This document shows positions 3,551 through 62,255 of a DNA stretch of 64,000 nucleotides, one piece after another. A model generated the notes under the pieces. The model had not been told where the DNA came from, ran no database searches, and worked only from the letters and a program-made list of their open reading frames with translations. The position numbers and the translations under genes were made by a program. Source of the stretch: Thermoproteota archaeon (GTDB lineage: Archaea; Korarchaeota; JAOZGF01; JAOZFZ01); assembly GCA_027492035.1 (NCBI GenBank), contig JAOZFT010000004.1:113929-177928 (forward strand), read 5' to 3'. Numbering within the stretch: position 1 is the first letter of the stretch; every line of letters begins with the position of its first letter.

Positions 3551-5146
3551 TTAGGGTAAATATTTGACCATATAAGCCCCCAAGTGTTCGTACCCTAGCC
3601 TTTTATAGTATAATTTTGTACCTAAAGCGCTTGTTACCAGAATTTTCTCTTTACGGTGCTTTTCACTTATTTCTTCAGCTAAAGATAAAAGCTTCTTTCC
3701 TACACCCTTATGCTGGTAAGCATTTTTTTTCTTGGCACCTACAGGAATCATCTCGCCATAAACATGCAGCTCACGAACTAACGCTGACTTACCCCTTATC
3801 TCCCACCTGAAAACCTTTGAAGAAGGAAATCTGAGCCTAAGAAAACCTACCAATGCGTCCTCTAACTTAGCCGTTAAAAAGAATTCACGCCCCCCCGAGG
3901 CTTCATAACTAGTTATTTCATAACTTATTTCACAGGAACCTTCCTTTTTCTTCTTCAAACGACCTATTTCATTACATCTTATGCATTTGCATCTTAACCC
4001 CTTTTCATCCATGTATTCCTTAATAAGTTGTCTTAAATTGCTTTTCTTAACACCAGCTGCTATTTCCGGTGCTGGGATGTCACGTTGAACCCGCATTATC
4101 CGCACCCAAGGCGGAACTAAGGATTTTATTGCAGCAATTACTTCAATTGCAGTTTCTAAACTGTAAGGGATGTACACCCCCTCTTTCCAAAGGGTATAAA
4201 GCTTAGTTCCAGGAATAACCAAGGTGGGGTAGATCTTTAACATGTCAGGTTTAAATTTCTCATCCATGAATATTTCCTTCGCCATTGAAACATCCATCTT
4301 AGGAGTTGAACCAGGTAAACCAGGCATGATATGGTAACATACTTTTAAACCGGAGTCTTTCAGTTGTTGAGTGGCTTCATAAACATCCTTTACTCCATGT
4401 TCCCTATTTATCAAGGAGTATATTTCATCATAAATGGTTTGTACACCTAATTCAACCCTGGTAACACCTAATTCCAGCATTAAGTTTATATGTTCCTTTT
4501 TTGAATAATCAGGCCTTGTCTCCACAGTTAAACCAACATTTCTTATTTCACTTGACTCAGCAAGCCTTTTTGTTTCCTCTAGCGTCCTTCCTATTTTATT
4601 ATTTAAAGCGTCTAAACATTTTTTCACAAACCCCCTTTGATAATTTCTTGACATTGCAGGGAAAGTGCCTCCCATAATAATTAGTTCAACTTTGCTTACG
4701 GTATGTCCTATGGAGGATAATTGCTTTATACGCTGTTTAACTTGCATGTAAGGATTGAATTCGTTTTGAATTGCCCGCATAGCTGCTGGTTCTTTGCCTG
4801 TATAGCTCTGAGGAACGTCGCCAAAAATCGAACTAGGTCCTCCAGGGCAATAAATACATGGTTTATCTTTGGGACAGGGGAAGGGATGAGTCATAACTGC
4901 TATAACATTCACGCCTGAAAGACTTCTGACATTTTTTATCCTCAACAAGTTTTTAAATTGAAACAGCCCCCTCTTTTCCATGTAGGAGATAATCTCTGAA
5001 TTTTTGGGGACCCTTCTCAAGTTTAGCCTTTTAGCTACCTTAATCTTTAATTTATTAAGTTGAACAGGGTCCACAGTTCCTGAATTGGGAATTTCTTTCA
5101 ACAATTCTTCAGAGAAAACATTTGTGGACCAGAGGGTGTTTTCCAA
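3551..5146 (-). CDS. elp3: Elongator Elp3-like tRNA uridine(34) acetyltransferase (radical SAM + GNAT)
   Basis: Radical SAM cysteine motif CIYCPGGP, 531 aa, C-terminal GNAT-like region HKGVGKKLLSLAEE. Confidence 0.85.
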   Translation of the reverse strand: MENTLWSTNVFSEELLKEIPNSGTVDPVQLNKLKIKVAKRLNLRRVPKNSEIISYMEKRGLFQFKNLLRIKNVRSLSGVNVIAVMTHPFPCPKDKPCIYCPGGPSSIFGDVPQSYTGKEPAAMRAIQNEFNPYMQVKQRIKQLSSIGHTVSKVELIIMGGTFPAMSRNYQRGFVKKCLDALNNKIGRTLEETKRLAESSEIRNVGLTVETRPDYSKKEHINLMLELGVTRVELGVQTIYDEIYSLINREHGVKDVYEATQQLKDSGLKVCYHIMPGLPGSTPKMDVSMAKEIFMDEKFKPDMLKIYPTLVIPGTKLYTLWKEGVYIPYSLETAIEVIAAIKSLVPPWVRIMRVQRDIPAPEIAAGVKKSNLRQLIKEYMDEKGLRCKCIRCNEIGRLKKKKEGSCEISYEITSYEASGGREFFLTAKLEDALVGFLRLRFPSSKVFRWEIRGKSALVRELHVYGEMIPVGAKKKNAYQHKGVGKKLLSLAEEISEKHRKEKILVTSALGTKLYYKRLGYEHLGAYMVKYLP

Positions 5147-5681: not shown

Positions 5682-6860
5682 TTGAAAATGAAAGCTTACC
5701 TAACTGTTTCACCATTGGGAGTGTTAGCAGTAAATGAAAAAAAGGAAATAATTCTAGTTAAGAAATTAAAGGGGGATATAAACCAAGTAACGGACAAATT
5801 TATCTCTTTTTTAGAAAAAAGGACACTTACAGAACTCAATAACGCCTTAGAAGAATTACTAGATATGGGATACCGAGAAATAAACATTGAAGAGAGGGAA
5901 CCTGTAAAGGTAAAGGAAGAAATTAAGGGAGTCATAAAATATAGTATACCAAATAAAGCTGGTTTATTGTTTAGAAGATATTTCACGGCTTTATCAGTTG
6001 AAAAATTTGGTTTCAGAAACAAAAAGGAAGCAAGAAGACGCATTCGTGAAGTAAGTATAAGGGTTACGGTTTATGGAATAAAGAAGGATAGATCCAGAAA
6101 GGATTTATCGATCATTCAAGCCATACATGTATTAGATGACTTGGAAAAAATGCTTAACTCCCTCTTTTTGAGGATAAAGGAATGGTACTCACTATACTTT
6201 CCTGAACTGTTTGATATATTAGAGTCTCAAGAATTAATAATCAAACTAATTTCCAAATTTAAGAAACCAGAAAAGATTAACCCACAAACCCTTAAGGAAG
6301 AATTTAATTTGCCATCAGAGATTATAAATAAAATAGCGAGTTCCATTAATGAAACTGTTGGGGCGAAGTTGCAAGAGAGAGACAGTGAGGTTATAGAGGA
6401 ATTGATTCAGGAGTGGCTTTCTTTAAAAAAGTGCTATGATGCAGTGAGGGGCTACATAGAAGAGGAAATGCCGAAAGTAGCACCAAACACTTCTTCACTT
6501 ACAGGGGCATTAATAGCTGCCCGGCTTATTTCGTCAGCAGGAGGGCTGGAATCACTTGCTAAATTACCCTCAAGCACTATCCAGTTATTAGGAGCTGAAA
6601 AAGCTTTATTCAGGTTTATAAGAGGAAAAGGTACACCCCCAAAACATGGAGTTATTTACCAATACCCTTTAATAAGGAAGTCAAACAAGAAAGTAAGAGG
6701 GAAGCTAGCTCGTAAACTTGCTAACAAGATAGCCATTGCAGCTAGAATTGACATGTTTTCAGGGGGCAGAGGTGAAGGCAAGCTTCAAGAAAAATTTGTG
6801 AGAGAAATCAAAAATATTGTTAAGGAAGAAAGGAATGAAAGTAATAAACAGCAAATTTGA
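5682..6860 (+). CDS. nop5: Box C/D snoRNP protein Nop5 (Nop56/58)
   Basis: NOP domain LIAARLISSAGGLESLAKLPSSTIQLLGAEKALFR, coiled-coil middle region, immediately followed by fibrillarin. Confidence 0.9.
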   Translation: MKMKAYLTVSPLGVLAVNEKKEIILVKKLKGDINQVTDKFISFLEKRTLTELNNALEELLDMGYREINIEEREPVKVKEEIKGVIKYSIPNKAGLLFRRYFTALSVEKFGFRNKKEARRRIREVSIRVTVYGIKKDRSRKDLSIIQAIHVLDDLEKMLNSLFLRIKEWYSLYFPELFDILESQELIIKLISKFKKPEKINPQTLKEEFNLPSEIINKIASSINETVGAKLQERDSEVIEELIQEWLSLKKCYDAVRGYIEEEMPKVAPNTSSLTGALIAARLISSAGGLESLAKLPSSTIQLLGAEKALFRFIRGKGTPPKHGVIYQYPLIRKSNKKVRGKLARKLANKIAIAARIDMFSGGRGEGKLQEKFVREIKNIVKEERNESNKQQI

Positions 6861-7515
6861 GGGAATTTACTGGTTAAAAAAAGGTAAGAGAAAGTTCTTA
6901 GTAACAAAAAATTTAGTGCCTGGATTTAGAAGCTGTAATGAAGAAATAGTTTATGTAAATGGTCGAGAGTATAGAGTATGGGACCCTTACAGGTCAAAAG
7001 CTTCTGCAGCGATACATAAAAAGGTAAAAGAGTTTCCTGTGAAGGAGGGGGACCTAATACTCTACCTTGGAGTAGCTTCTGGTACCACAGCGTCTTATTT
7101 AAGTGACATTATTGGTGAAGAGGGAGTCATCTATGGAGTTGATTTCTCAGCTTCAGCTTTATTACCATTAATCCAAATTGCAAGGAAAAGGGAAAATATT
7201 GTTCCTTTACTCGCAGATGCAAGAACTCCTTCACGGTATATTAACTTCGTCGAAGAAGTTGATGTGGTGTACTGCGACGTTGCGCAACCTAACCCTACTA
7301 GTATTGTGTCGACTAATTCAAATCTTTTTTTGAAAGAGTCAGGTTATGTACTGCTTGCTATAAAAGCCAGCAGCATCGATATTTCAAAAAAACCTAAAGA
7401 AGTGTACCTAGAAGAAGAGAAGAAGCTGAAAGAGACGGGTTTTGAAATAATTGACTCAGTGAATTTAGTGCCTTACCATAAGAAACATGCTTTCCTTCTC
7501 TTGAAAAGGAAGTAA
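6835..7515 (+). CDS. flpA: Fibrillarin-like rRNA/tRNA 2'-O-methyltransferase
   Basis: YRVWDPYRSKASAAI and SAM-binding YLGVASGTTASY motifs; conserved nop5-flpA pair. Start taken at internal ATG (MKVINSKF...) overlapping the nop5 end. Confidence 0.9.
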   Translation: MKVINSKFEGIYWLKKGKRKFLVTKNLVPGFRSCNEEIVYVNGREYRVWDPYRSKASAAIHKKVKEFPVKEGDLILYLGVASGTTASYLSDIIGEEGVIYGVDFSASALLPLIQIARKRENIVPLLADARTPSRYINFVEEVDVVYCDVAQPNPTSIVSTNSNLFLKESGYVLLAIKASSIDISKKPKEVYLEEEKKLKETGFEIIDSVNLVPYHKKHAFLLLKRK

Positions 7516-7532: not shown

Positions 7533-8669
7533 ATGAAGCTTAAACTTTATAAGGAGGGAAAAGTTTTCTTCTTTGCTTCCCAAGGAGAACTTAATTCCTC
7601 CGCACCTGTTTTCTATAACCCGAAAATGAAACAGAATAGAGATTTCACAATATTAGTGGGAGCATGGCTTAGGAAAGAAAAGAAAAAAGGAATAAATTAT
7701 TTAGAGCCATTATCAGCTTCTGGAGTTAGAGGGTTAAGGTTTGCAAAAGAAATTGAGGCCTCTAAAGTAATTATTTCAGACAAGAAAAAGACAGCTTACC
7801 AAGTAATGCAGACGAACATCAAAATAAATGAGTTGGAAAGTAAAGTAACTCCTTTCAATTTGAAGGCAATTACCTTAATGGAAATACTTAAAGAAATGAT
7901 GTTCTGGTTTGATTTAGTTGACATAGACCCTTTTGGTTCACCAATCTACTTTGTTGAAGCTGCCTCAGCTATTCTTAAAAGGAGAGGAGTACTAGCGGTT
8001 ACAGCTACGGATTTAGCCACTTTACAAGGTGTTAAACCTGAAACATGTTTTAGAAGATACGGAGTAATGCCTTATAGAACAGATTATTCTAAAGAACTTG
8101 GTCTGAGAGTATTAATAAGTTCAGTAATTTTACGAGTCTCTCCCTCTGAAATATTTCTGGAACCTATTCTGTCCTTTGCAGGTAAGCATTACTACAGAAT
8201 TTTCTTTCAAGAGGTGAAAGGTTTCAATTATAAGAGATGGGGTTACAATCTCTACTGCAAAAGTTGCTTATGGAGAGGAACAACCTCAATTGAAGAGAGT
8301 CACTACCATAAATGCCCCAATTGTGGAGGGAATATAAAGGTTATAGGGCCATTATGGTTAGGCCCTCTGGTATCGTGCAACTTAATTGAAAAATTAAAAG
8401 AAATGCTTAGAAATTTTCGATATATAGAAGATAGAGAGAACCAAAAGTTGCTTAGTTTGTTAAGTCAAGAATGTTCAGCCCCTCCTTTCTATTTCGATCT
8501 TCATTCTTTTTCGTCTAGAATAAGAGTCTCTCCACCAAACATCGAAGAAACAATGCTTAGGGTTAAAGAGCTAGGTTACTCAGCCTACAGAACCCATTTC
8601 TCCTCCACTGCAATAAAATCAAACATTGGCGCAAAGGACTTGACTGAATTGTTACGAAGGAGGAATTAA
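7533..8669 (+). CDS. trm1: tRNA (guanine(26)-N2)-dimethyltransferase
   Basis: VDIDPFGSPIYFVEAA motif and C-terminal Cys cluster (CKSCLW...CPNCGG) typical of archaeal Trm1. Confidence 0.8.
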   Translation: MKLKLYKEGKVFFFASQGELNSSAPVFYNPKMKQNRDFTILVGAWLRKEKKKGINYLEPLSASGVRGLRFAKEIEASKVIISDKKKTAYQVMQTNIKINELESKVTPFNLKAITLMEILKEMMFWFDLVDIDPFGSPIYFVEAASAILKRRGVLAVTATDLATLQGVKPETCFRRYGVMPYRTDYSKELGLRVLISSVILRVSPSEIFLEPILSFAGKHYYRIFFQEVKGFNYKRWGYNLYCKSCLWRGTTSIEESHYHKCPNCGGNIKVIGPLWLGPLVSCNLIEKLKEMLRNFRYIEDRENQKLLSLLSQECSAPPFYFDLHSFSSRIRVSPPNIEETMLRVKELGYSAYRTHFSSTAIKSNIGAKDLTELLRRRN

Positions 8670-23574: not shown

Positions 23575-24177
23575 AATAGATGGCTCGATAGTATACAATT
23601 AAATAATTAAGTGAATCCCATTGCTACTTGCTTGCAAGCCCTTTAGGTTAGAATAAAAATACTTCTTGGATTTAAGCAGAATTATTGTGGAGGAGTTTGA
23701 CAAAACATTTCTATTTAAGTAATCCTATTAATGTTATGTGTTTGCATTTACTCAAGCTTAAATAAGGTTTTAAGTGTCCCTTTAACCTTTAACTATGTAA
23801 AGTAAAGGTTTCTGGAAACGACTCTAGTGAGCATTGTGGAATCATCTTTGATGAGAGAAGTAAGTTTAGGGACAAAAGTAAACAACAGCACTCTATCCTC
23901 CAGTTAGGGATGTGGAGGATGACACCCGCGATGATGCCCCGGCTACAGTTATGAAAAATTATAAAAGTAGCGGAGAGAGAACCAGAACGGCTTCGTTTCT
24001 TAACCTACATAGTTGATAAAGCAGTACTTGGAGAAATGGTTAGACTGGGCCAGGTACTCCTACCATGATCCCTTTTTCTATGCAACCTTTTTCACGACTT
24101 CACTAACATATGGTTTAGATATAACCCTTAGTTAGTTCCGGGATTGAACTAAAGAGTTTTGGCTCTCTTTAACAGAA

Positions 24178-24662
24178 ATGGTCCTTAAAGGTCTGAGTTT
24201 AAAGATACAGGAAAAAGAATTTTATGCCCTTATGGGACCCAACGGTGCTGGAAAAACAACTTTAGTCGCTATCATAGCCTCTGTGATTTTACCTACCGAG
24301 GGTAAGGTAGAAATTTATGGGAAGGAACCTCAGTTTATAAGGAAATTTATTGGTTATGTACCTCAAGAAAATTTTTCTTCCCCAACGCTTAGTGGTAGAG
24401 AGAATTTGATGTACTTTGCTAGACTTGTGGGTATTCAAAGGATAAGGCTAAGGAACTTGTGAACGAAATACTGGAAAAAAAATTGGTTTGTCTAAGGATG
24501 CTGATAAGAGAGTTTCTACATATTCGGAGGTATGAGAAAAAGGTTGGAAGTTGCAACAGCCTTCTTTCCTAATATCAAATTTTGATTTTAAGTGAACCAA
24601 CTACAGGCCTGGACCCCTCGGCAAGAAGAGAATTTTTGGGCTTAATTCAAGATATTCCCTAA
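24178..24662 (+). pseudogene. ABC transporter ATP-binding protein, truncated and frameshifted remnant
   Basis: Walker A GPNGAGKTT in frame 1, signature-like GGMRKRLEVA in a second frame, Walker B-like ILILSEPTTGLDP in a third frame, then an early stop; N-terminal 25 or so residues missing. Confidence 0.75.
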
Positions 24663-25144
24663 ATAAATTTGTAGTCTGCTCAGGGATGAATGCAAAATAT
24701 TGATTCCTAGTTTTACTTAAACTCCTTCTAACAACGAGTATCGTCGGTACCTTCTCAAACTCGATGCTGTCAGCCTTTATCTCAGCTTTAAGAAAATCTC
24801 TAAGCTTCAACACATCAGTTCCATCATAGCTTCCTAAGCTCTGAAGCCTTAAACCGAAAAAGCCATCAACGCTATAGTAATCCTAGCTCTGGGTATAGCC
24901 ATCCTAATAATCTTATCCAACTCAGCTTTACCTGGAACCCTTTCGTCAGCTATAGTTTGGTGTCTCGTATTACTTTAGCAATATTAACCTTAAGCTTGAC
25001 ATCCAATCCGTTAAAAGAAAGCCAGGAACATAGGGCTTTCTTAAACCTAGCTACATATGAACCAGCCTTACCTTCCGATTCAAGCTCTCTAACGAAATCC
25101 ATAAACCTATCTCTAAAGAACTTAGTCCCAGCTACCTTAAGCAA
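24663..25144 (-). pseudogene. Tyrosine recombinase/integrase, frameshifted and C-terminally truncated remnant
   Basis: N-terminal SAM-like region (MLKVAGTKFFRDRFMDFVRELESEGKAGSYVARFKKALCSWL) and box I region (ITIALMAFS / GLRLQSLGSYDGTDV) appear in three successive frames; catalytic HxxR/Y region absent. Lower boundary approximate because the far end overlaps the ABC fragment antisense. Confidence 0.55.
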
Positions 25145-25356
25145 AGCCTCAGGATCAGTTTTATTCGATTCACAGTAAAGCCCTAGGTCCTAAGGCAAAC
25201 TGTAGCTGTAATGATGGATTTAGCTGCTAGGTTACCAAACCCACGCTTAACATCCTCATCCTCAAGGAGGTAAGAATACTTATTCGGCAACTCTTGTTGA
25301 GTTGAGTTAAAGGTTGAAACCGTGTTTAAAATTTAAGGGTTCACTTGAAAAGTTAG

Positions 25357-25481
25357 TGGGCCCGGCGGGATTTGAACCCGCGACCCTCGGGTTGCTCCTC
25401 CAAAGGGGAGTACTTCTTTGGGATTAAGAGCCCGGTGCTTTAGGCAAATGAGAGGTTTCTACCTTGCTGAGCTACGGGCCC
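25357..25481 (-). tRNA. tRNA-Lys(CUU) with two predicted introns (about 19 nt in the D-stem, about 32 nt in the anticodon loop)
   Basis: 7-bp acceptor GGGCCCG/CGGGCCC, T-arm GCGGG-UUCAAAU-CCCGC. Removing AACCUCUCAUUUGCCUAAA restores D-arm GCUC-AGCAAGGUA-GAGC; anticodon stem CCGGG with loop CUCUUAA after removing a hairpin-forming intron. Isotype from hand folding. Confidence 0.6.
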
Positions 25482-25534
25482 AGAGATTAAATGTTAAAGG
25501 GGTGATTATTAAACCTTTTTAAGGGATTTTTTAT

Positions 25535-25975
25535 TTAAATGTTGCATTCTTTTTGAGTGGAAACTTCAACTGTAACTATAACTTTTCCTCCTTTCTTGAT
25601 TTCGTTAATTAGTGCCCTGTTGAAGTCTATAGCTGCTTTATCAGCTAGAATTGCCAGTGTTCTTGAACAAATGAATTTGCTTTTCCTTACAACCATATCT
25701 TCGTGATGGTTTAGAGGGAGATCGGGGTGTCCATGAGCTTTAATTATTTCTGTTTTGTTTCCAGCTTTCACTTTTATCTCTATTAACGCATTCTCCTTTC
25801 TAATTAAGTCCTTAACTTTTTCATTGAAATGTTTTAAGGCTTTGTTACAGTTAACAGCTATTATGCAGTTCCCTTTTTCTGTTAGGTAAGGTGCGCAAGT
25901 TAGTTCAAATGTTGTTTTATGAGTAGCTGTGACTAGGGGGTGTCCCTTACAAATTATTGTAACTTTTTCTTTCAT
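25535..25975 (-). CDS. DUF371-like protein
   Basis: MKEKVTIICKGHPLVTATHKTTFELT... resembles the archaeal DUF371 family; start taken at the internal Met rather than the upstream extension in the ORF track. Confidence 0.4.
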   Translation of the reverse strand: MKEKVTIICKGHPLVTATHKTTFELTCAPYLTEKGNCIIAVNCNKALKHFNEKVKDLIRKENALIEIKVKAGNKTEIIKAHGHPDLPLNHHEDMVVRKSKFICSRTLAILADKAAIDFNRALINEIKKGGKVIVTVEVSTQKECNI

Positions 25976-32439: not shown

Positions 32440-32526
32440 GGGCCCGTGGCCTAACATGGATAAGGCGTCGGCCTGCGGTTTTTAGAAGAAAGCCGGAGGA
32501 TGCGGGTTCAAATCCCGCCGGGCCCG
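32440..32526 (+). tRNA. tRNA-Arg(GCG) with 12-nt anticodon-loop intron
   Basis: Acceptor GGGCCCG/CGGGCCC, D-arm GCCU-AACAUGGAUA-AGGC, anticodon stem UCGGC/GCCGG with loop CUGCGG + intron UUUUUAGAAGAA, T-arm GCGGG-UUCAAAU-CCCGC. Confidence 0.75.
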
Positions 32527-33852: not shown

Positions 33853-34210
33853 ACAGGTAATAGTGTTAAGAACAGACTTAGAAATTAGTGCCGGAAAATT
33901 AATTGTCCAAGCTTGCCATGCTTCATGCTCTTCTTTACTAAAAGCCGAAAAAACTGAGATAATTGACAAATGGGTAAGGGAAGGAAGTAAAAAAGTTATT
34001 TTGCAGGTGAAAAGCGAAGAAGAACTTAAAAAACTTTACTTTAAAGCCTTAAGATTAGGCTTACCATGTTATTTAGTACAAGATGCAGGACTAACTGAGT
34101 TGAAGCCTGGAACCATCACGGCTCTTGGAATAGGTCCAGAGTCTTCATCATTGATAGATAAGGTTACTGGCTCCATTCCCTTGCTTAAGGGGGAAATAGC
34201 CTTTGTTTAA
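33839..34210 (+). CDS. pth2: Peptidyl-tRNA hydrolase, archaeal Pth2 type
   Basis: VLRTDLEISAGKLIVQACHAS and LVQDAGLTELKPGTITALGIGP motifs. Confidence 0.85.
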   Translation: MEEVKQVIVLRTDLEISAGKLIVQACHASCSSLLKAEKTEIIDKWVREGSKKVILQVKSEEELKKLYFKALRLGLPCYLVQDAGLTELKPGTITALGIGPESSSLIDKVTGSIPLLKGEIAFV

Positions 34211-35408
34211 CGAATTACTAGGAAAGATAGGTATAAGATTTCGTAATTTTAGTATGAGTAAATTTAACGGTTCAATAAGGACATTGCCTGAAGACTTTGT
34301 TGTAGTAGAGGTAATGGAGAACATTGATTCATTAAGTAATACCAGCAAGTTTTTCTTACACTGCCTGCTCAAGAAAGAGGGAATTGATACATTTTCAGCC
34401 TTCCAAGCAATGTCGAGAAGGTTAAGAGTGAGAATTAGTGAGGTGGGGTTCTCTGGAACAAAGGACAAGAAAGCAATTACTTTTCAGAGAGTAAGTTTAC
34501 CCAGCAGAGTCAACATCACCGCCTCTTTAACCTTATTACAAGGAAAAATCAAACTGTATCCCCTAGGTTTTTATAAAATTAGGCTTTACCTAGGGATGCA
34601 TAAGGGAAATTACTTTAAAATAAGAATCAGAGGTTTATCTGGCGTTTCTTACTGGGAAAAAACATTAAAAGAAATTGAGGGTAAGGGTGATGAGATCTAC
34701 TTCCCAAATTTTTTCGGTAGCCAAAGATTTGGAGAAAGAGCACCTTTTAACCACGAGATAGGGAGATTAATTGTTAAAAAGAAATTCAAGGAAGCTGCCT
34801 TGCTTATAGCATCAAAATCACCATTTAAGGAACACTCTAATAATTTTGAAGCTACATATGAAGAGAAAGTGAAAAAGTATTTAGAAAACAACCCCACTAA
34901 TTACTTGAATGCCTTAAAAAGGGTTCCTTTGTTCATATTAAAATTTTTTGTGGCTGCTTACCAATCATATCTCTTTAATTTGCTTCTTTCAAAGAGAATT
35001 GAAATGAGCTACCCCTACAACAGGCCATTAATAGGCGACTTGGTTTTCTCGAAAAAAAAGAACTCATTTCTTTTTTATTCACCCGCTCAAACAGTAAATG
35101 AAACTGAAAAAGGTAATTATGACGTTTATTTGCCTTTACCTGGTTATATGTTGAAATTTCGCAGCGGGAAAAGTTGGAAACTATTAAAAGAAATTTTTCA
35201 AGAAGAGGAAATTTCCCCAGAAGATTTCTTTGTAAAACAGATCCCTCAAATCAGTGCAGCAGGAGGATTTAGGCCATCAAGTTCTGGTGCAAAAAATTTC
35301 CATTACAAGCTAGACAAAGAGCAGAGAAGGGTCATTTTGAATTTTTTCTTACCTAAAGGGAGTTACGCAACAGTGTTTCTTAAATTCTTCATGACAGGCA
35401 ATTTTTAG
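34203..35408 (+). CDS. truD: tRNA pseudouridine(13) synthase TruD
   Basis: PEDFVVVEV and FFGSQRFG motifs; about 400 aa. Confidence 0.8.
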   Translation: MFNELLGKIGIRFRNFSMSKFNGSIRTLPEDFVVVEVMENIDSLSNTSKFFLHCLLKKEGIDTFSAFQAMSRRLRVRISEVGFSGTKDKKAITFQRVSLPSRVNITASLTLLQGKIKLYPLGFYKIRLYLGMHKGNYFKIRIRGLSGVSYWEKTLKEIEGKGDEIYFPNFFGSQRFGERAPFNHEIGRLIVKKKFKEAALLIASKSPFKEHSNNFEATYEEKVKKYLENNPTNYLNALKRVPLFILKFFVAAYQSYLFNLLLSKRIEMSYPYNRPLIGDLVFSKKKNSFLFYSPAQTVNETEKGNYDVYLPLPGYMLKFRSGKSWKLLKEIFQEEEISPEDFFVKQIPQISAAGGFRPSSSGAKNFHYKLDKEQRRVILNFFLPKGSYATVFLKFFMTGNF

Positions 35409-36573: not shown

Positions 36574-36664
36574 TGGGCCGGGTGGGATTCGAACCCACGA
36601 CCTCCGCCTTTTTCCAAGGAACAAAACGTGAAGGCGACGTCATAACCATCTAGACCACCGGCCC
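36574..36664 (-). tRNA. tRNA-Val(CAC) with 17-nt anticodon-loop intron
   Basis: Acceptor GGGCCGG/CCGGCCC, anticodon stem UCGCC/GGCGG with loop UUCACG + intron UUUUGUUCCUUGGAAAA, T-arm GUGGG-UUCGAAU-CCCAC. Confidence 0.7.
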
Positions 36665-53051: not shown

Positions 53052-55625
53052 GTAAAGATAAAGGAACCTAATCTCCCGGAAAAAGTTGCACAAGCAGCTG
53101 CGAAATTAGGCATAAGGGCCCTTTTCCCGCCTCAAATAAGAGCTATAAAGAAGGGAATTCTAAAGGGTAAAAATTTCGTCATAGCTACACCTACAGCTAG
53201 TGGAAAAACATTTATAGCATTAGCTGCGATAATAACCAAGTTAAATAAACACAGTGATAAAGCTATTTATTTAGCACCTCTACGGAGTATAGCATCGGAA
53301 AAATACAGTGAATTCAAAGAATTATTTGATGAATTAGGGTTAAGGACGGCTATTTCCACCGGTGACTTCGATCTTTCACCCGACTGGTTGAAAGGATATA
53401 ACATAATTATTTCCACGAATGAAAAAATTGACTCAATCATTAGACACAACCCAAAGTGGTTACAAGACGTAAAGGTAGTTGTAGTGGATGAAGTGCACCT
53501 TATTGACAGTTTGAAACGTGGCCCAATAATCGAACTCTTAATCGCTAAACTAAGGAAGAAAATAGAAAACCCACAAATTTTGTGCTTAAGTGCAACAATT
53601 AAAAATGTGAAAGAACTAGCGGAATGGATTAATGGAACATATATAAGCAGCAACTGGAGACCCGTAGAACTCAGGGAGGGAGTATTTTATGATTACAAAA
53701 TCTATTGGAGCAATGGAACAAAAAACGTAAGGAAAATTAAGGGGGAGAAATACACAGACCTCTGTCTAGATACATTAAAGGAGAAAGGGCAGGTACTTGT
53801 TTTTTTAAACACCAGAAAAAACGCAGAAAACACCGCAGAAAAAGTAAAGAACGCTATTTCCAACACTCTTACTGAAGAAGAGAAAAAGGAACTTAAAAAA
53901 ACAGCTAGAAGGATTATTTCAGAAGGAGAACAAACTAAACTTTCGAAAAAACTAGCTAACCTAATAATGAGTGGAGTTGCATATCATCACGCAGGTTTAA
54001 GGCATATTCATCGTGCAATAGTAGAGGAAGCATTCAGAAGTAATTTTCTAAAAGTTATTTGTGCAACCCCCACCTTAGCTGCAGGAGTTAACCTCCCAGC
54101 TAGGAGGGTAATAATAGGGCAAATTCATAGATTTTCAAAGGGAAAAGGAAGTCAACCTATTTCTGTAATGGAGTACAAACAAATGTGTCTGCCGTATGAC
54201 ACGCTGATCTTAACAGAAGAAGGGGAGATAGAGATAGGGGAGATAGTTGAAAAGAGAACTCCAAAAAAAGTTGTCAGTTTAGATCTTGAAACCGGTAAAG
54301 TAACCTTGAGCAAGATATTATCCTTTTTTGAAAGGAAAACTAATTTTTTGGTTAAACTCTTTTTAACTACTGGCTTAAACCTAGAACTGACACCTAACCA
54401 TCCATTGCTGGCAGTTAAAAACGGAAGGTACGGATGGTTACTTGCAAAAAGAATACGGAGAGGCGATGTTGTATTTACGTTAGATAAAGGGCTAATGAGA
54501 AAGATAAAAGTGAAAAAGGTAAAAAGAATAAACTTAGATAGCCCGATCACTGTCTTCAATTTGAAAACAGAAAAGGAAACCTTTTTTGCGGAAAGAATTG
54601 TATTGCATAATTGTGGACGGGCAGGTAGACCAAAGTATGATGAAATAGGGGAGGCGGTTCTTATAGCAAACACTGAAGAAAGAAAGGAAAAGTACTTAAA
54701 AAAGTACGTGAACTCGAAACCAGAAAAAATAAAATCGAAACTGGTTGATTCACCTGCCCTAAGAGCGCAGATTCTGTCACTAATAACTTCTAATTTGGCA
54801 TTCACTCCTGAAGATATGAGGGACATATTTAAGTTGACTTTTTATTACAGCCAAACTAAAGAGAAAAAGAAAATAGAGAGAAAGATTAAAGAAACATTAG
54901 ATTTCTTGTTACTTAACGGATTTATAAAGAAAACAGGGGACTTGCTTCATGCTACAAAGTTAGGAAAAAGGGTTTCTTTACTTTATTTAGATCCTCTTAC
55001 AGCAATAATTTTACTTAAAGGAATGGAAAAACTAGAAAAGAAGAAAGTCACTCCTCTTTCATTACTAACACTGATCTGCCTCACTCCAGACATGGAAACA
55101 CTAAGTTACCGTAAGGCATTCTATCACGAAATGAACAACTTACTTAAAGAAAGAGAGGAAGAACTACCCCTAGAAGTTTATTATACTTCAACCTATTACT
55201 TGCTCGATCAAGACTGGCTGCAAGCAATATGGACTGCAAATATGCTTGAGAAATGGATAAATGAAGAAAATGAAGACACTTTAAACTTTAAGTACGGAGT
55301 TGGCCCAGGAGACATAAGAAGAGTAAATGAAAGTGCTGATTGGCTCCTCTACTCCATGCAGGAATTAGCCAAAACGTTTAAACATGAGAATTACATTCCT
55401 TTAATTGAAGAACTAAGGCAAAGAATAAAATATGGAGTGAAGAAGGAACTAATTGAATTAACTACCATAAAGGGTATTGGAAGGGTAAGAGCCAGAGTCC
55501 TCTACAATAAGGGATACAAACGTTTAGAAGATTTGAGTAAGGCGTCTATAAATGAACTTGCTAAACTTCCAGCTATAGGCGAAGCCTTAGCAAAAAGTAT
55601 TAAAGAACAACTAAATGAGGAATAG
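53052..55625 (+). CDS. hel308: Hel308 (Hjm) Ski2-like helicase, containing a mini-intein; true start codon unresolved
   Basis: Walker A ATPTASGKT, DEVH box VVVVDEVHL, motif VI QM-CGRAGRP interrupted by intein, C-terminal HhH (IKGIGRVRARVL). Homologous N-terminus lies upstream of the ORF-track start (53388) with no ATG/GTG/TTG in frame back to the stop at 52905; 53052 is a frame-consistent placeholder. Confidence 0.8.
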   Translation, partial: VKIKEPNLPEKVAQAAAKLGIRALFPPQIRAIKKGILKGKNFVIATPTASGKTFIALAAIITKLNKHSDKAIYLAPLRSIASEKYSEFKELFDELGLRTAISTGDFDLSPDWLKGYNIIISTNEKIDSIIRHNPKWLQDVKVVVVDEVHLIDSLKRGPIIELLIAKLRKKIENPQILCLSATIKNVKELAEWINGTYISSNWRPVELREGVFYDYKIYWSNGTKNVRKIKGEKYTDLCLDTLKEKGQVLVFLNTRKNAENTAEKVKNAISNTLTEEEKKELKKTARRIISEGEQTKLSKKLANLIMSGVAYHHAGLRHIHRAIVEEAFRSNFLKVICATPTLAAGVNLPARRVIIGQIHRFSKGKGSQPISVMEYKQMCLPYDTLILTEEGEIEIGEIVEKRTPKKVVSLDLETGKVTLSKILSFFERKTNFLVKLFLTTGLNLELTPNHPLLAVKNGRYGWLLAKRIRRGDVVFTLDKGLMRKIKVKKVKRINLDSPITVFNLKTEKETFFAERIVLHNCGRAGRPKYDEIGEAVLIANTEERKEKYLKKYVNSKPEKIKSKLVDSPALRAQILSLITSNLAFTPEDMRDIFKLTFYYSQTKEKKKIERKIKETLDFLLLNGFIKKTGDLLHATKLGKRVSLLYLDPLTAIILLKGMEKLEKKKVTPLSLLTLICLTPDMETLSYRKAFYHEMNNLLKEREEELPLEVYYTSTYYLLDQDWLQAIWTANMLEKWINEENEDTLNFKYGVGPGDIRRVNESADWLLYSMQELAKTFKHENYIPLIEELRQRIKYGVKKELIELTTIKGIGRVRARVLYNKGYKRLEDLSKASINELAKLPAIGEALAKSIKEQLNEE
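54186..54611 (+). other. Mini-intein (142 aa, no homing-endonuclease domain) in Hel308 motif VI
   Basis: Begins with Cys (CLPYDTLILTEEG, block A), contains TPNHPLL (block B TxxH), ends FFAERIVLHN followed by Cys +1; flanking exteins YKQM / CGRAGRP reconstitute motif VI. Confidence 0.8.
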
Positions 55626-57521: not shown

Positions 57522-57640
57522 GGGGCCGTAGTCCAGCCAGAGGGAAGCCTAGATATGGGCTTTTCAGGCAAGGTAGGATGCCTGCCTGGGGAAATTAGCC
57601 GGAACGCAGGTGGTCCCGGGTTCAAATCCCGGCGGCCCCA
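57522..57640 (+). tRNA. tRNA-Pro(GGG) with two predicted introns (about 31 nt in the D-loop, about 13 nt in the anticodon loop); CCA encoded (to 57643)
   Basis: Acceptor GGGGCCG/CGGCCCC, D-stem GUCC/GGAU with insertion in the loop, anticodon stem CCUGC/GCAGG with loop CUGGGG + short intron, T-arm CCGGG-UUCAAAU-CCCGG, then A-CCA in the genome. Confidence 0.6.
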
Positions 57641-57721
57641 CCATTCCCAGCTTTTAAAATGTAGAGACGTAAAGAAGGGAATAAGTATTTTTTGAGTATA
57701 ACTCTTTGGAGAAAAGAAACT

Positions 57722-59173
57722 TTAAACCCAAACTTTTTCGGTTAAAACTCCCGAAAGGAAAAGGCTGAGGCCTTTCTTATATACCCCCTCGATCTGCTCA
57801 CTCCCCAAAATTTTGAAAGAAGAGACTAAGTTTTTCTCAACCATGGATTTTCTGTTTAACTTCTTCTTTATAATTTGGGACAATATCTCTTTAACTGAAG
57901 TTTCCTCTCTTTTTAAGTCAACTACTAAACGCTGTCCCTCCAAATAGGGACCTTTCAGAACCAATTTGTTGTTTTCATACTTTTTTAGGAAACTTATAAC
58001 ATTTTCTTTGCTCTTTTGAAGAACCGGTGGACCATAATGTTTTTTGATAGGTAACAACCTCTTTGTAACTGTTTCAAAGATTATGCAACATTTGGTTTGC
58101 TCATTAGTCCAGTAATACTTCCCAATTATTTCTACCCCTTCTTGGCTCATAAGCATAGCTAATTTCTTTGTCGTTTTTTTAAGCTGAGGCCAGATAATAT
58201 CTGGAGACTCTTCTTTTTCTAAACTGAAATCTATAAATAGCCAATAAGAACCTCGTCTCAATACTTTCCTGTTAATTTCATTTAAAGATAAAATTTGAGT
58301 TTTACCAGGGAAAAAGAAGGATAAACTAGGTTTTTTTAAGAAATTAATTGCAGAAATTATGAATTTACTCAAATTTTTATCTGAAACAGCTGCAGCTACA
58401 TTTCTTTCCTTATCAACAGGGTCTATAACGATCAAAGAGCCAGGAAAACTAGCAATTAATTTTTCAGTTAAAGGAAATCTTTCAATGTTTATTATTTCTC
58501 GTTGAGACCACTTTATAGATTCTTGAAGAAGTTTTAAGAAATTGCCATAGTGTAAAATGAGAAGCTCACAAAGATAACCAGAGAAACCTTCAGTTTTTGC
58601 GTCAGCCCCATAAACCGCTATCCCCTTCATAAACTGTTTCAGAATCCTTACTTCAGCAGCTTTTTCCTCTGTAATTTTCCCTTTCAAGTACCTATTGTGG
58701 AAAATTGTTCTATCAACAGAAGATTTTTTCTCTTCTAAACTTTTTATTTGAAAACAAGGCACTAGATCAATTTCGTAAGAGTTAATAATTAACCGGGCAT
58801 AAGGGTGCTCCGCATACTTTATAATTAAGTTTTGTGTTATTTCTTTAGCTATTTTCACTGTTTCATTCTCTAATTCTTCTTTACTGAATGATAAGGGGAA
58901 AGACAAGAAAATATCTATGTCTTTGTCACCTTTTAGCCAAGTATTTCTTGCAGTTGAACCCACTAACTCTGGTTTTGCAGGAATATTTCTTTCTTTACAA
59001 ATTTCTTTTATTTTGCAGAGTAACTTGCTCGTGAACATCTTAACATATTCTATTTCTTTTTTAGAAGGCTCTACCCTATTCAAAACATTTTTAAGGATGT
59101 CTTCAATGAGTTTTCTTTTATTACTGGAAAATGCCTCTTCAACTAGCCAATTTGACTGAAAATAAGGTTTCAT
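57722..59173 (-). CDS. cca: CCA-adding enzyme (archaeal class I tRNA nucleotidyltransferase)
   Basis: GSTARNTWLKGDKDIDIF nucleotidyltransferase motif; 483 aa. Confidence 0.85.
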   Translation of the reverse strand: MKPYFQSNWLVEEAFSSNKRKLIEDILKNVLNRVEPSKKEIEYVKMFTSKLLCKIKEICKERNIPAKPELVGSTARNTWLKGDKDIDIFLSFPLSFSKEELENETVKIAKEITQNLIIKYAEHPYARLIINSYEIDLVPCFQIKSLEEKKSSVDRTIFHNRYLKGKITEEKAAEVRILKQFMKGIAVYGADAKTEGFSGYLCELLILHYGNFLKLLQESIKWSQREIINIERFPLTEKLIASFPGSLIVIDPVDKERNVAAAVSDKNLSKFIISAINFLKKPSLSFFFPGKTQILSLNEINRKVLRRGSYWLFIDFSLEKEESPDIIWPQLKKTTKKLAMLMSQEGVEIIGKYYWTNEQTKCCIIFETVTKRLLPIKKHYGPPVLQKSKENVISFLKKYENNKLVLKGPYLEGQRLVVDLKREETSVKEILSQIIKKKLNRKSMVEKNLVSSFKILGSEQIEGVYKKGLSLFLSGVLTEKVWV

Positions 59174-59702
59174 AAACAGGACCCTTTGGCGTAAGTACAG
59201 ATTTCTTTAACTTAATTTCATTAACCTCTAACGGACCGAAATCCATGTTTTTGAGGGTTAAAAGCGCACTAACTAAGCTTTTCTCCTTAACGAAACGTTT
59301 AACTCTACCCAATGTTATATGGGAAGTAAACTCTTTTCCCAAGTCATAATTTATGTCTTTCCCAAACGAAGAAAGTAAGGCGTTGTAGACCTCCCTTATT
59401 TTTTCGTTATTTTCAGAAACTCCCACCCAGATTACTCTGGGTTTTTTCATGTTTGGAAATGCCCCTACACCACTTAACTTTACAATGAATGACTTTATAT
59501 CTGAGAGAGGCTTCATCCGTTCCTTTATTAACTTTATTTCTTCATTGTTTTTTTCTCCTAAAAAAATTAGGGTGATATGCAAATTCTGAGGCTCTACCAA
59601 TTTTATAGGAATGTTTAAAGAAGCTAATTTATTTTGAACAGTCATTATTTTATTTCTCACTTCTTTATCAGTAACATCAATTGAAATAAAACAACGAACC
59701 AA
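59139..59702 (-). CDS. thpR: RNA 2',3'-cyclic phosphodiesterase (2H family, LigT/ThpR)
   Basis: Two HxT motifs (HITLIFLG and HITLGRV); 187 aa; overlaps the cca start. Confidence 0.8.
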   Translation of the reverse strand: MVRCFISIDVTDKEVRNKIMTVQNKLASLNIPIKLVEPQNLHITLIFLGEKNNEEIKLIKERMKPLSDIKSFIVKLSGVGAFPNMKKPRVIWVGVSENNEKIREVYNALLSSFGKDINYDLGKEFTSHITLGRVKRFVKEKSLVSALLTLKNMDFGPLEVNEIKLKKSVLTPKGPVYETLFSVKLAS

Positions 59703-59824
59703 GCTTTCGCCACCTTCCTATAAAGTTTTATTAAATTTAAAAATAAAGAACAACGTGGAAAATTTAAGTTTGTAACAGATTAAAAAATTTCTTTAAAAGA
59801 GATTTATTGAAAAGATGAAAAGCC

Positions 59825-60226
59825 TTGCTTGTAAGGGCATACACGCGAGTTAATCCAACTGAAAGCCGAGAGAAAGTAGAGAAAGCTCTAAAAAATATAG
59901 TCTCGAAAGGAAAAATTCGTTGTTTCAGAAAGGGAGATGTAGATGTACTGGAAATAGAGGGATATGGTGAAGAAAGTCTTGAAACAATTTTTTACAAGAT
60001 AAGACAGAAAAAAATAGTTGATTCCTTCCGAAAGTTACTTCGCCGTAATAGAGGTGGAAATGAAACAGTTATCATGCTTAACAAACAGTCAGCCTATGTT
60101 GGTGTGATAACAGTTTGTGAAACAGAAAAGGAATCCCCTTTAGGTCCTGTGTTTTTGCAAATAAAATCTCAAAATCAAAAAATAGAAGAAATAATTGACT
60201 GGTTGGCACCTGAAACTAAAGCTTAA
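59825..60226 (+). CDS. Protein of unknown function (possibly UPF0201-like)
   Basis: 133-aa ORF from a TTG start (MLVRAYTRVNPTE...); no confident family. Confidence 0.35.
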   Translation: MLVRAYTRVNPTESREKVEKALKNIVSKGKIRCFRKGDVDVLEIEGYGEESLETIFYKIRQKKIVDSFRKLLRRNRGGNETVIMLNKQSAYVGVITVCETEKESPLGPVFLQIKSQNQKIEEIIDWLAPETKA

Positions 60227-61166
60227 CTTTTTTATTGGGAAGGAAAATTTCCGGTTCCCCCTTTTCCGGGTAAGGTATGTGAACCTTCAAAAAATCTTCA
60301 GCGATTATCACCTTTTTAGGCAATGAATCTAAACCTTTCATATATTCTTCTTGGGTCGCATATCGGTTACTTATGTGGGTAGCAACAACTAACTTAGTAC
60401 TTGTTTCTTCCGCTAACTTTACCACGTCTTGGATTGTAGAATGCGATTTCTCTTCTGCATGCTGTAAATCCTTCGCTGAGAAAGGGGCGTTGTAGATTAC
60501 TAAATCTGAACCCTGTGCAATTGAAATTAATTCCTCAAAAAACACGGTATCTGGTATATAAACTATTTTTCTTCCTTTCCTAGGAGGACCTATTATGTCA
60601 GAGGGCTTAATTATCCGCCCTCCCCAAGTAATTGTTTCACCTTTGATTAAAAGAGGCCTTAAATTGTTTGGAATACTGAGTTTTTGAGCTTTTTCCCCAT
60701 TGAACTTCCCTCTTCTATTTTTCTCTAAAAGAGCAACCCCTAGACAGTCAATAGAGTGCTTCACTCCAAAAAAGTTCAAGAAGTATTCATCATAAGAGTA
60801 AATGCTTCCGTCGGAAATAGGAAGAAAGGTTACTTCAAAGTTTGGATTAAGCTTGAAAAAATTTGCATGAAAAAGCAGGAAACTTCTTAATTTCTTAGGT
60901 CCAAACAGTTCTAGCTGAGTTTTGCGTCTAAACATTTTCATTGATTGAAGTAATCCTGGTAAGCCGAGTATGTGGTCCCCGTGTACATGAGAAACAATTA
61001 TTTTCATTGGTTTACAGAAACCTAATTTAGATTTAGCTAGAAGGAATTGTGCCCCTTCAGCCGGATCAAGCATAATTAGTTCCTTTTTTCGCTTAATCAC
61101 TACGCAGAAGGGGTTCCTGTTCCCTAAAGAGGCTGAAGCGCCTGTTCCTAGAAAGTACACATCCAT
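60216..61166 (-). CDS. rnz: Ribonuclease Z (tRNA 3' endonuclease)
   Basis: Metallo-beta-lactamase motif VSHVHGDHILGLPGLL; about 316 aa. Confidence 0.8.
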   Translation of the reverse strand: MDVYFLGTGASASLGNRNPFCVVIKRKKELIMLDPAEGAQFLLAKSKLGFCKPMKIIVSHVHGDHILGLPGLLQSMKMFRRKTQLELFGPKKLRSFLLFHANFFKLNPNFEVTFLPISDGSIYSYDEYFLNFFGVKHSIDCLGVALLEKNRRGKFNGEKAQKLSIPNNLRPLLIKGETITWGGRIIKPSDIIGPPRKGRKIVYIPDTVFFEELISIAQGSDLVIYNAPFSAKDLQHAEEKSHSTIQDVVKLAEETSTKLVVATHISNRYATQEEYMKGLDSLPKKVIIAEDFLKVHIPYPEKGEPEIFLPNKKVKL

Positions 61167-61214
61167 TTTCTATCATTCTCTCAGGTAAGTTAATTCTAAA
61201 AGAAAATAGTATTA

Positions 61215-62255
61215 TTAGGGTTTAAAGTAAAGGTCCACTTTGCGTATAAGGTGACGATGTAGGTAAACATTAAAAGAAGCAACAAGTTTAAACCCTATCT
61301 CTTCAGCATATTTGTGAATATTTATTCTGTTAGGGTAGGAGATACACATATATTTTCCTTTTTTCAAGGACTTAAAGGCAGATGGGATAAATTTTTTCAA
61401 CAGCTCAATAAGGGATCTACCATAAGAACTTGTTGAAATGGAATAAGGAGGATCTGTTACTATAGCATCAACTTTTTCATTTAATGAACAGGCATCACCT
61501 ACCTTCACCTCAAAATCTGTTTTACCTGTGAAAAGTAGGTTTATTTTGGCTAATTCCACAATTTGAGGGTTTAGGTCAATCCCTATTGCCTTGCAATTTA
61601 TGTTTAGGGCTTCAACAAGTATTCCACCTGGTCCACAGAAAGGGTCCAAGACAACGTCGCCTTTTTTGACATGTGCTAGGTTTACCATAGCCCGGGCTAA
61701 TGCAGCGTTCATCATTCCGCTTCTAACAATAGGTAGAGAAACCCCTCTCCCGAAAAGTAGTTTAGTTCTATCCACTTCCTCCAACTTTTTACCAAAAATA
61801 AATTTGTTTTGGATAAGAAGACCTAAATAAGTGATTTCAGGTCTTTCCAGGTTAACTTTAAAGGTGCTTTTCTTAGATTTAATTATAGCCCCTATTTCTT
61901 TGGTTAATAGTTGAGTTGAAACGTGTTTCGAGCTTCCTCTCACCCTAATGATTTCAACTTTAAAACCTAATTCGCCCTTGTTCGAGTTAATTTCTAATTT
62001 TTTGGTTGCTTCAAGAATTTTCTTCTCCTCCGAAGTACAAGCGAAGTAGAGCTCACTGATTATTTTTGTGAATGCGGCCCGGTTTGAAATAGAGGCAACT
62101 GATTGTTCATTTGACTCAAAAACTAGGCACTGAGGCAGAGAAAGGAGTTCACGATATGGTTTATTTTCTCCTTTAAGTATTGATTCAACTTCTAAGGCTG
62201 CTAATTCAGGATTTTCACCTGAAAGAAAACAAAAGAAATTCTTCACTGACCTCAC
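61215..62255 (-). CDS. tRNA (guanine(10)-N2)-methyltransferase, Trm11/Trm-G10 type (THUMP + methyltransferase)
   Basis: SAM-binding VLDPFCGPGGILVEA and catalytic DPPY (IVTDPPYSIS); N-terminal THUMP-like region. Confidence 0.75.
   Translation of the reverse strand: MRSVKNFFCFLSGENPELAALEVESILKGENKPYRELLSLPQCLVFESNEQSVASISNRAAFTKIISELYFACTSEEKKILEATKKLEINSNKGELGFKVEIIRVRGSSKHVSTQLLTKEIGAIIKSKKSTFKVNLERPEITYLGLLIQNKFIFGKKLEEVDRTKLLFGRGVSLPIVRSGMMNAALARAMVNLAHVKKGDVVLDPFCGPGGILVEALNINCKAIGIDLNPQIVELAKINLLFTGKTDFEVKVGDACSLNEKVDAIVTDPPYSISTSSYGRSLIELLKKFIPSAFKSLKKGKYMCISYPNRINIHKYAEEIGFKLVASFNVYLHRHLIRKVDLYFKP

Follow-up and report, generated by a model that had tools for sequence, protein, structure and literature searches.

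Can a tRNA-Lys gene of 125 nucleotides (nt), interrupted once in the D-stem and once in the anticodon loop, specify a conventional tRNA, and how would its two interruptions be removed? The question is raised by a locus in a stretch of 64,000 nt (the window: positions 113,929 to 177,928 of contig JAOZFT010000004.1, GenBank assembly GCA_027492035.1) from a Thermoproteota archaeon. An original prediction, made from the letters of the DNA alone, had placed at 25357–25481 of the window a 125-nt tRNA-Lys gene with two introns of about 19 and 32 nt. We consider it highly probable that the locus is a tRNA-Lys(CUU) gene, chromosomal and functional, in an uncultured, hydrothermal, AT-rich (36% G+C) Thermoproteota archaeon and that its transcript is spliced at two bulge-helix-bulge (BHB) motifs, between positions 22 and 23 (22/23) and between positions 37 and 38 (37/38) of the mature tRNA.

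The Rfam model RF00005 identifies a tRNA gene of 125 nt with exactly these coordinates, running from 25481 to 25357 on the minus strand (the original prediction had given no strand), with a score of 43.7 bits (gathering score 29). The alignment spans the full model (positions 1–71; E = 5.5e-06 over the whole 64-kb window), with inserts of 25 positions against 4 in the D-arm and of 34 against 2 in the anticodon loop. Block by block, the full gene reads GGGCCCGTAGCTCAGCAAGGTAG / AAACCTCTCATTTGCCTAA / AGCACCGGGCTCTTA / ATCCCAAAGAAGTACTCCCCTTTGGAGGAGCA / ACCCGAGGGTCGCGGGTTCAAATCCCGCCGGGCCCA. Deleting the second and fourth blocks (19 and 32 nt) restores a canonical 74-nt cloverleaf, drawn by ARAGORN as tRNA-Lys(ctt), which reproduces the predicted isotype as well as the number and sizes of the introns. 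The spliced form has stems of 7/4/5/5 bp: a 7-bp acceptor, the D-stem GCUC/GAGC closing the D-loop AGCAAGGUA with its G18 and G19, a 7-nt anticodon loop (C-U-CUU-A-A) in which position 33 is U and position 37 a purine, and the T-arm GCGGG-UUCAAAU-CCCGC, followed by the discriminator A73. When intron 1 alone is deleted, ARAGORN reports a tRNA-Lys with a 32-nt canonical intron; when intron 2 alone is deleted and the D insert kept, the result is a distorted structure that the program forces into a 'tRNA-Gln'. ARAGORN in its default run does not call the gene at all, and its single-intron option, applied to the precursor, returned 'tRNA-Lys(ttt) i(37,41)', a solution that we rejected as wrong in favour of the two-intron model. 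The features of the gene are given below, with splice sites marked by an arrow; L123 is the locus of a closely related strain, to which we return.

25357–25481, minus strand: tRNA-Lys(CUU) gene with two predicted introns, CCA not encoded (RF00005; ARAGORN on the spliced form).
25459–25481, minus strand: exon 1, positions 1–22, with the acceptor 5' strand, U8 A9, GCUC (D-stem, 5' strand), the D-loop AGCAAGGUA and G22 (GGGCCCGTAGCTCAGCAAGGTAG; same in L123).
25440–25458, minus strand: predicted intron 1, 19 nt, AAACCTCTCATTTGCCTAA, flanked by G22 and A23 on the D-stem 3' strand, relaxed BHB (register scoring).
25461–25464, minus strand: intron 1 central helix, exon strand AGGU (A17a G18 G19 U20), followed by the 5' bulge A21 G22↓A.
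25442–25445, minus strand: intron 1 central helix, intron strand GCCU, followed by the 3' bulge A A↓A23.
25425–25439, minus strand: exon 2, positions 23–37, with AGC (D-stem), A26, CCGGG (anticodon stem, 5' strand) and the loop C U CUU A (AGCACCGGGCTCTTA; anticodon CUU at 34–36).
25393–25424, minus strand: predicted intron 2, 32 nt, ATCCCAAAGAAGTACTCCCCTTTGGAGGAGCA, canonical 37/38, strict hBHBh' form (register scoring, fold).
25427–25430, minus strand: intron 2 central helix, exon strand C32 U33 C34 U35.
25395–25398, minus strand: intron 2 central helix, intron strand GGAG (the 3' end GGAGCA↓A also occurs in the related locus L112).
25400–25421, minus strand: inner hairpin of intron 2, CCAAAG (25416–25421) / CUUUGG (25400–25405), with a 10-nt loop (folding).
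25357–25392, minus strand: exon 3, positions 38–73, with A38, CCCGA (anticodon stem, 3' strand), the variable loop GGGUC, the T-arm, the acceptor 3' strand and A73 (ARAGORN; same in L123).

Archaeal tRNA introns are removed by the archaeal tRNA-splicing endonuclease (EndA). In the archaeal BHB, two 3-nt bulges, which contain the splice sites, flank a helix of 4 bp and, in introns at 37/38, the first two bases of the anticodon pair with the intron as part of this central helix (PMC4090602). We scored the BHB geometry in every possible splice register of both introns. Intron 2 falls at 37/38, after position 37 as had been predicted, and there its motif takes the strict form: the central helix CUCU/GGAG is paired at 4/4 positions, which fits the anticodon-pairing rule (PMC4090602), the bulges are UA↓A and CA↓A, the outer helix is the 4 bp of the anticodon stem and the inner helix has at least 3 bp. 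The hairpin CCAAAG/CUUUGG that had been described within intron 2 is present in the folds. The original prediction also had the size of intron 1 and its place on the 3' strand of the D-stem right but cut it at 23/24, a register that was rejected with 1/4 central pairs. Only at 22/23 does the motif have a 4/4 central helix (AGGU/GCCU) with the bulges AG↓A and AA↓A, together with two inner pairs. Registers 21/22 and 24/25 were likewise rejected, having 1/4 and 3/4 central pairs and failing to restore GAGC.

Shuffling gives some measure of how often such motifs arise from composition. For intron 1, a 4/4 central helix appeared in 7% of trials, and in 0.5% with at least two inner pairs as well; for intron 2, the corresponding figures are 2.4% and, with at least three inner pairs, 0.07%. 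The fold of the precursor has a z-score of -2.4 and, at 60–75 °C, both central helices are present and the minimum free energy (MFE) structure includes the strict structure of intron 2. Judged by their sequence, both inserts would be archaeal BHB tRNA introns, intron 2 with a motif of the strict and intron 1 of the relaxed kind; among non-canonical introns, relaxed motifs such as hBH/HBh' are an accepted form (PMC4090602, PMC4033280). Neither intron contains C/D-box motifs and no further copies of either were found within the 64-kb window; a guide-RNA role and recent transposition of the introns are therefore unsupported.

Is 22/23 used elsewhere in the same tRNA? A scan of a genome collection for 5' halves of tRNA-Lys(CUU) listed at least 120 loci, the source genome itself lying outside this listing, and among the 120 matches listed 8 genes have an insert in the D-arm. 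Metagenomes scanned with the exact exon sequence of the lineage gave zero matches, whereas a broader scan of the metagenomes for any insert of 8–38 nt between GGTAG and AGC, with the intron content left unconstrained, gave 15 further loci. With the window and L123 variants included, the unique inserts at 22/23 of tRNA-Lys(CUU) in genomes and metagenomes together number at least 18. An AGGU/[GA]CCU helix at this site is paired at 4/4 positions in 13/18 unique inserts and at 3/4 in the other five (5/18), whereas shuffling expects 4/4 pairing in 7%. Some of these genes have extra introns, for example of the 45/46 type or at 37/38 plus 59/60.

Named counterparts occur in metagenome-assembled genomes (MAGs) labelled Aigarchaeota or Nitrososphaeria (L088 Terraquivivens, L093 Geocrenenecus, L006, L008 and L009). 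Their 22/23 introns share isotype, insertion point and AGGU/[GA]CCU helix with intron 1 of the window and are similar in size (13–24 nt); in L088 and L093 the 3' junction GCCUAA↓AGC is also identical. The remaining intron sequence, in contrast, is unrelated, the discriminator and stems of the tRNA differ and most of these genes have no 37/38 intron, although L088 has one. With the rest of the intron unrelated, common descent is indistinguishable from convergence imposed by G18 and G19.

These comparisons bear on whether the gene might have another layout, in which the first splice lies at 23/24, or in which the D-arm insert is kept and the 37/38 intron alone is removed. Owing to a run of A residues, cuts at 22/23 and 23/24 yield an identical mature sequence, which would not tell them apart, and the flanking helices of the intron 1 motif are weak. 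Set against this, the 23/24 register offers one central pair in four where 22/23 offers all four, retention of the D insert leaves no acceptable cloverleaf (the 'tRNA-Gln' of ARAGORN) and the 22/23 register recurs in 13 of the 18 unique cases. We regard either variant of this layout as very unlikely and retain splicing at 22/23 and 37/38.

Further evidence comes from a comparison of strains. Two assemblies (GCA_027491625.1 and GCA_027491475.1) are 100% identical to the window over the tRNA, and a third (GCA_027491775.1, which contains L123) represents a strain that is ~99% identical; all three come from one study. Between the window and L123, 7 of 51 intron nt differ and 0 of 74 exon nt (Fisher p = 0.0015), variation in the introns and invariance in the exons being what is expected if both segments are discarded from a functional RNA. 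Intron 1 has a single substitution, within the intron loop, whilst the six differences in intron 2 are all in the loop or the inner helix; the BHB bulges and central helices of both introns are without change. In L123 a 1-nt deletion gives intron 2 a perfect inner helix (UCCAAA/UUUGGA). The surrounding DNA is itself unusually divergent, with 34 differences in the 372 nt from 25354 to 25725 (~10%) against 0–5 per 500 nt further to the right. Besides the tRNA introns, this hot spot covers the promoter region and the 3' end of a DUF371 gene, and it suggests a recombination tract linked to an adjacent insertion or deletion.

L123 is without window positions 23584–25353, a segment of 1770 bp that starts three bases (25354–25356) downstream of the discriminator (25357). 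Within the segment, on the strand of the tRNA and ~70 nt downstream of it, lies a frameshifted and truncated integrase gene (about 24601–25290, minus strand). Once repaired, this gene translates into 228 aa that match entries named 'site-specific integrase' in a large protein database at 63–67% identity, with E values down to 6e-83; a Pfam search with the three fragments of its open reading frame (ORF) and with the frameshift-repaired translation returned no domain. The segment also encodes a 94-aa fragment of an ABC-ATPase (24178–24462). It matches no phage record, its ends show no informative repeats, and no second, att-like copy of the 3' end of tRNA-Lys was found within the 64-kb window. 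The 3' ends of tRNA genes are usual integration targets, and the 1770-bp segment is probably what remains of an element that integrated at tRNA-Lys. Because L123 has tRNA-Lys without the element, the tRNA gene itself is chromosomal.

It could be argued that the tRNA gene arrived as cargo of the mobile element and is not the host's own: the frameshifted integrase lies close by on the same strand in a strain-specific segment, and the strains diverge to an unusual degree over the ~370 nt that contain the tRNA. However, L123, without the segment, has the same tRNA with two introns in the same place, the gene lies beside DUF371 and PIMT in distant Bathyarchaeia-type loci also (L068, for example), and tRNA 3' ends are where such elements usually integrate. 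We give the cargo explanation almost no weight, and treat tRNA-Lys as a resident gene of the chromosome.

Signals that might drive and end its transcription can be read on either side of the gene.

25506–25513, minus strand: TATA-box-like TTTAATAA at -32 to -25, preceded by the purine-rich AAAAAGG; candidate archaeal promoter (read from sequence).
25348–25351, minus strand: oligo-T tract at +6 to +9 past the discriminator; likely archaeal terminator (read from sequence).

The combination of TTTAATAA and AAAAAGG is our candidate for the promoter. The trailer of L123 differs in sequence from that of the window but TTTT is present there too.

Is the gene nonetheless a pseudogene, a tRNA-Lys disrupted by two insertions that are never removed? 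The missing ARAGORN call, a C27.A43 mismatch in the spliced form, an Rfam score below the approximately 56 bits of two neighbouring tRNAs and the decayed integrase that adjoins the gene could all be taken to favour such a reading. Yet the two strains have exons of 100% identity amid ~10% local divergence whilst the inserts vary, both inserts lie in the BHB register that restores the cloverleaf, many lineages have an insert at 22/23 with this helix, and a TATA-like box and an oligo-T tract are present. A non-functional locus is, in our estimation, highly improbable.

Several observations nevertheless weigh against a functional, doubly spliced gene. The C27.A43 mismatch stands at the top of the anticodon stem in both strains, the sole irregularity of the cloverleaf. 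The intron 1 motif is relaxed, with a strict outer helix of 0 bp and an inner helix of just two A-U pairs, and at 37 °C the MFE fold of the precursor pairs the D region differently. In addition, a Pfam scan of 48 of the 59 window ORFs of at least 90 aa found no tRNA_int_endo (EndA) or RtcB domains; for most of the other 11, precomputed Pfam labels on near-identical strain loci contain no EndA or RtcB domain either. The balance of the evidence remains with a functional gene, and it is on this understanding that we consider how its tRNA might be made.

Transcription from the TATA-like promoter (of the TATA/BRE type, BRE being the transcription factor B recognition element) would give a precursor of ~125 nt, the ends of which would be trimmed by RNase P and RNase Z and to which the CCA-adding enzyme would add CCA. 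EndA would cleave the two BHB motifs, releasing the 32-nt intron from the strict motif at 37/38 and the 19-nt intron from the relaxed motif in the D-stem at 22/23, and an RtcB-type ligase would join the exons (23 + 15 + 36 nt) to produce the 74-nt cloverleaf. The gene, the cloverleaf that appears once both inserts are taken out, the BHB geometry, the contrast in conservation between exons and introns and the recurrence at 22/23 can be seen in the sequences; by analogy with other archaea, we infer the transcription of tRNA-Lys, the enzymes involved and the actual excision. The genes in the window for a CCA-adding enzyme and for other enzymes of tRNA processing are in keeping with this pathway. 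The lack of good flanking helices around intron 1 leads us to predict an endonuclease of broad specificity, of the (alpha-beta)2 or epsilon2 type (PMC4090602, PMC5829648).

What can be said of the history of the two introns? The related locus L112 comes from the MAG 'Thermoproteota archaeon Flange_M5_B4' (JAOZFL010000110.1), which lies at roughly genus- or family-level distance, its proteins being 72% (CDC48), 61% (FEN1) and 68% (PIMT) identical to those of the window. Three introns interrupt its tRNA-Lys(CUU) gene (6915–7037, minus strand): one of 19 nt at 18/19, one of 16 nt at 37/38 and one of 14 nt at 59/60. All have a 4/4 BHB central helix, and there is none at 22/23; the gene is below detection by Rfam at the gathering threshold. 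The neighbourhood is homologous, the mature tRNA near-identical (the spliced forms differ at 2 positions) and the 37/38 intron ends GGAGCA↓A in both, whereas the window gene has two introns, including that at 22/23, and L112 has three, the others lying elsewhere. The L112 gene is 1.2 kb from PIMT, in an orientation relative to PIMT that is inverted with respect to the window, and a search for DUF371 near it gave no match. At more distant loci with this gene neighbourhood, namely L001, L068 and L081 (which have Bathyarchaeia or Bathyarchaeota labels) as well as L063, tRNA-Lys is a plain, intron-less gene of 74 nt; in L141, a locus picked via FEN1, the tRNA is not in that neighbourhood. Since the window, L112 and the intron-less loci differ in this way, intron content at this locus has changed repeatedly in the lineage.

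The tRNA genes of the window point in the same direction as the original prediction, which had taken multiple non-canonical introns as characteristic of certain archaeal lineages: all four are interrupted, two of the four have two introns and, as noted, L112 has three in its tRNA-Lys. tRNA-Pro(GGG), found by a motif scan at 57522–57640 (plus strand), has its CCA encoded (57641–57643), unlike tRNA-Lys. It was detected neither by ARAGORN nor by the Rfam gathering scan, the only sub-threshold match being to tmRNA at 32 bits. Its introns are a D-loop insert of 30–32 nt (about 57539–57570), for which the splice register is ambiguous and the best central helix 3/4, and a 13-nt intron at 37/38 (57592–57604) with the central helix CUGG/CCGG. 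tRNA-Arg(GCG) (32440–32526, plus strand) and tRNA-Arg(CCU) (36574–36664, minus strand) have one canonical anticodon-loop intron each, of about 12 and 17 nt. Each of the four genes has a box of the TTTAAA or TTTAAT type 25–50 nt upstream of it and T-tracts downstream. The published average for archaea as a whole is 0.21 introns per tRNA gene, and that for Thermoproteales is 0.84 (PMC8450103). The six introns in four genes seen here, a small sample, point to an intron-rich lineage.

As to the identity of the host, only three homologues of FEN1 exceed 60% identity; below them the matches level off at ~56%, under a mixture of TACK and Asgard labels, and no order stands out as the closest. Gene order around tRNA-Lys matches Bathyarchaeia-type loci, and the NCBI label of L112 is just 'Thermoproteota archaeon'. 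From these sequence comparisons we take the host to be a poorly sampled Thermoproteota lineage, probably other than Thermoproteales. In such a lineage tRNA introns might have proliferated independently of Thermoproteales, which would make it a second hot spot, with a fast turnover of intron positions that is possibly linked to the targeting of tRNA-Lys by integrases; we put this forward as a tentative suggestion that is rather more likely to be wrong than right. The link to integrases is considered because the integrase remnant abuts the 3' end of tRNA-Lys in one strain only and, if true, would agree with the view that disruption lets a tRNA gene escape the integration of mobile elements or is a record of it.

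How unusual is a gene of this kind? Archaeal tRNA genes with several or non-canonical introns were reportedly described as a class by Marck and Grosjean in 2003 and by Sugahara in 2007 and 2008; Thermoproteales is the order in which they are concentrated. Position 22/23 is listed among non-canonical tRNA intron positions (PMC4090602), genes with two or three introns are documented (PMC4090602, PMC4033280, PMC8450103) and tRNA-Pro(UGG) of Pyrobaculum islandicum, for example, has introns at 25/26, 37/38 and 56/57 (PMC4090602, PMC4033280). The window gene resembles the multi-intron genes of Thermoproteales in combining a canonical 37/38 intron with a non-canonical one at strict or relaxed BHB sites, in intron sizes of 13–32 nt and in the restoration of a cloverleaf upon intron removal; it differs from the P. 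islandicum tRNA-Pro in what is probably another host lineage, in the AT-rich genome (36% G+C), in isotype and in intron positions. Within the same tRNA species, tRNA-Lys(CUU) is split at 30/31 in Nanoarchaeum and Staphylothermus (PMC4090602). The split genes and the 45/46-type genes of Desulfurococcales and Acidilobales have in common with ours that the same tRNA is disrupted non-canonically, in both TACK and DPANN archaea, but there the gene has a single intron or is trans-split, there is no D-stem intron and the break point is another. The window tRNA-Lys is thus an addition from a poorly sampled lineage to a known kind of gene layout and leaves knowledge of the mechanism unchanged.

The practical consequence lies in annotation. 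ARAGORN overlooks two of the four tRNA genes of the window, whilst the Rfam gathering threshold overlooks tRNA-Pro(GGG) and the three-intron gene of L112, so that a MAG of this lineage would seem short of essential tRNAs unless a BHB-aware predictor were used; tRNAscan-SE 2.0 looks for such introns by default in its archaeal mode (PMC8450103). The window, L123, L112 and the intron-less loci also form a small natural series in which the gain, loss and movement of non-canonical introns might be followed, and they predict a splicing endonuclease of broad specificity in this lineage.

The genome scan brought out other interruptions of tRNA-Lys(CUU), with dozens of genes among the 120 matches listed disrupted at non-canonical sites. 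In Desulfurococcales, Acidilobaceae, Pyrodictiaceae and Sulfolobales (many of the loci L003–L119), most tRNA-Lys(CUU) genes have an insert of 15–50 nt in the variable region, of the 45/46 type (CCCGTAGA↓...↓AGTCCCGGG), in place of a 37/38 intron. These variable-region inserts show how frequently tRNA-Lys(CUU) in particular is disrupted at non-canonical sites. Ten further loci (L005, L028, L032, L043, L083, L094, L102, L105, L111 and L118), several but not all of them labelled Nanohalarchaeota or Nanobdellati, have tRNA-Lys(CUU) genes with long 37/38 introns that contain a common block, approximately GAGGGTGA[AG]GCTTTTA[AG]CCAGAC, and some also have an insert in the T-loop. The conservation of this block might point to a function or to a common origin.

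Elsewhere in the window are a number of genes for RNA processing. Those beside tRNA-Pro (57722–63193) encode a CCA-adding enzyme (57722–59173), a LigT-like 2H phosphoesterase (59139–59702), a PF01877 RNA-binding protein, a metallo-beta-lactamase that is possibly RNase Z (60216–61166), a UPF0020 methyltransferase (61215–62255) and TtuA (62252–63193); Elp3 (3551–5146), Nop5 and fibrillarin (5682–7515), Trm1 (7533–8669) and TruD (34203–35408) are encoded at other sites. Finally, an ORF for a Hel308-type helicase (53388–55625, plus strand) contains an intein splicing domain at residues 274–395. This ORF appears to begin in the middle of the DEAD domain, and probably either the true start of the gene lies upstream or there is another interruption.

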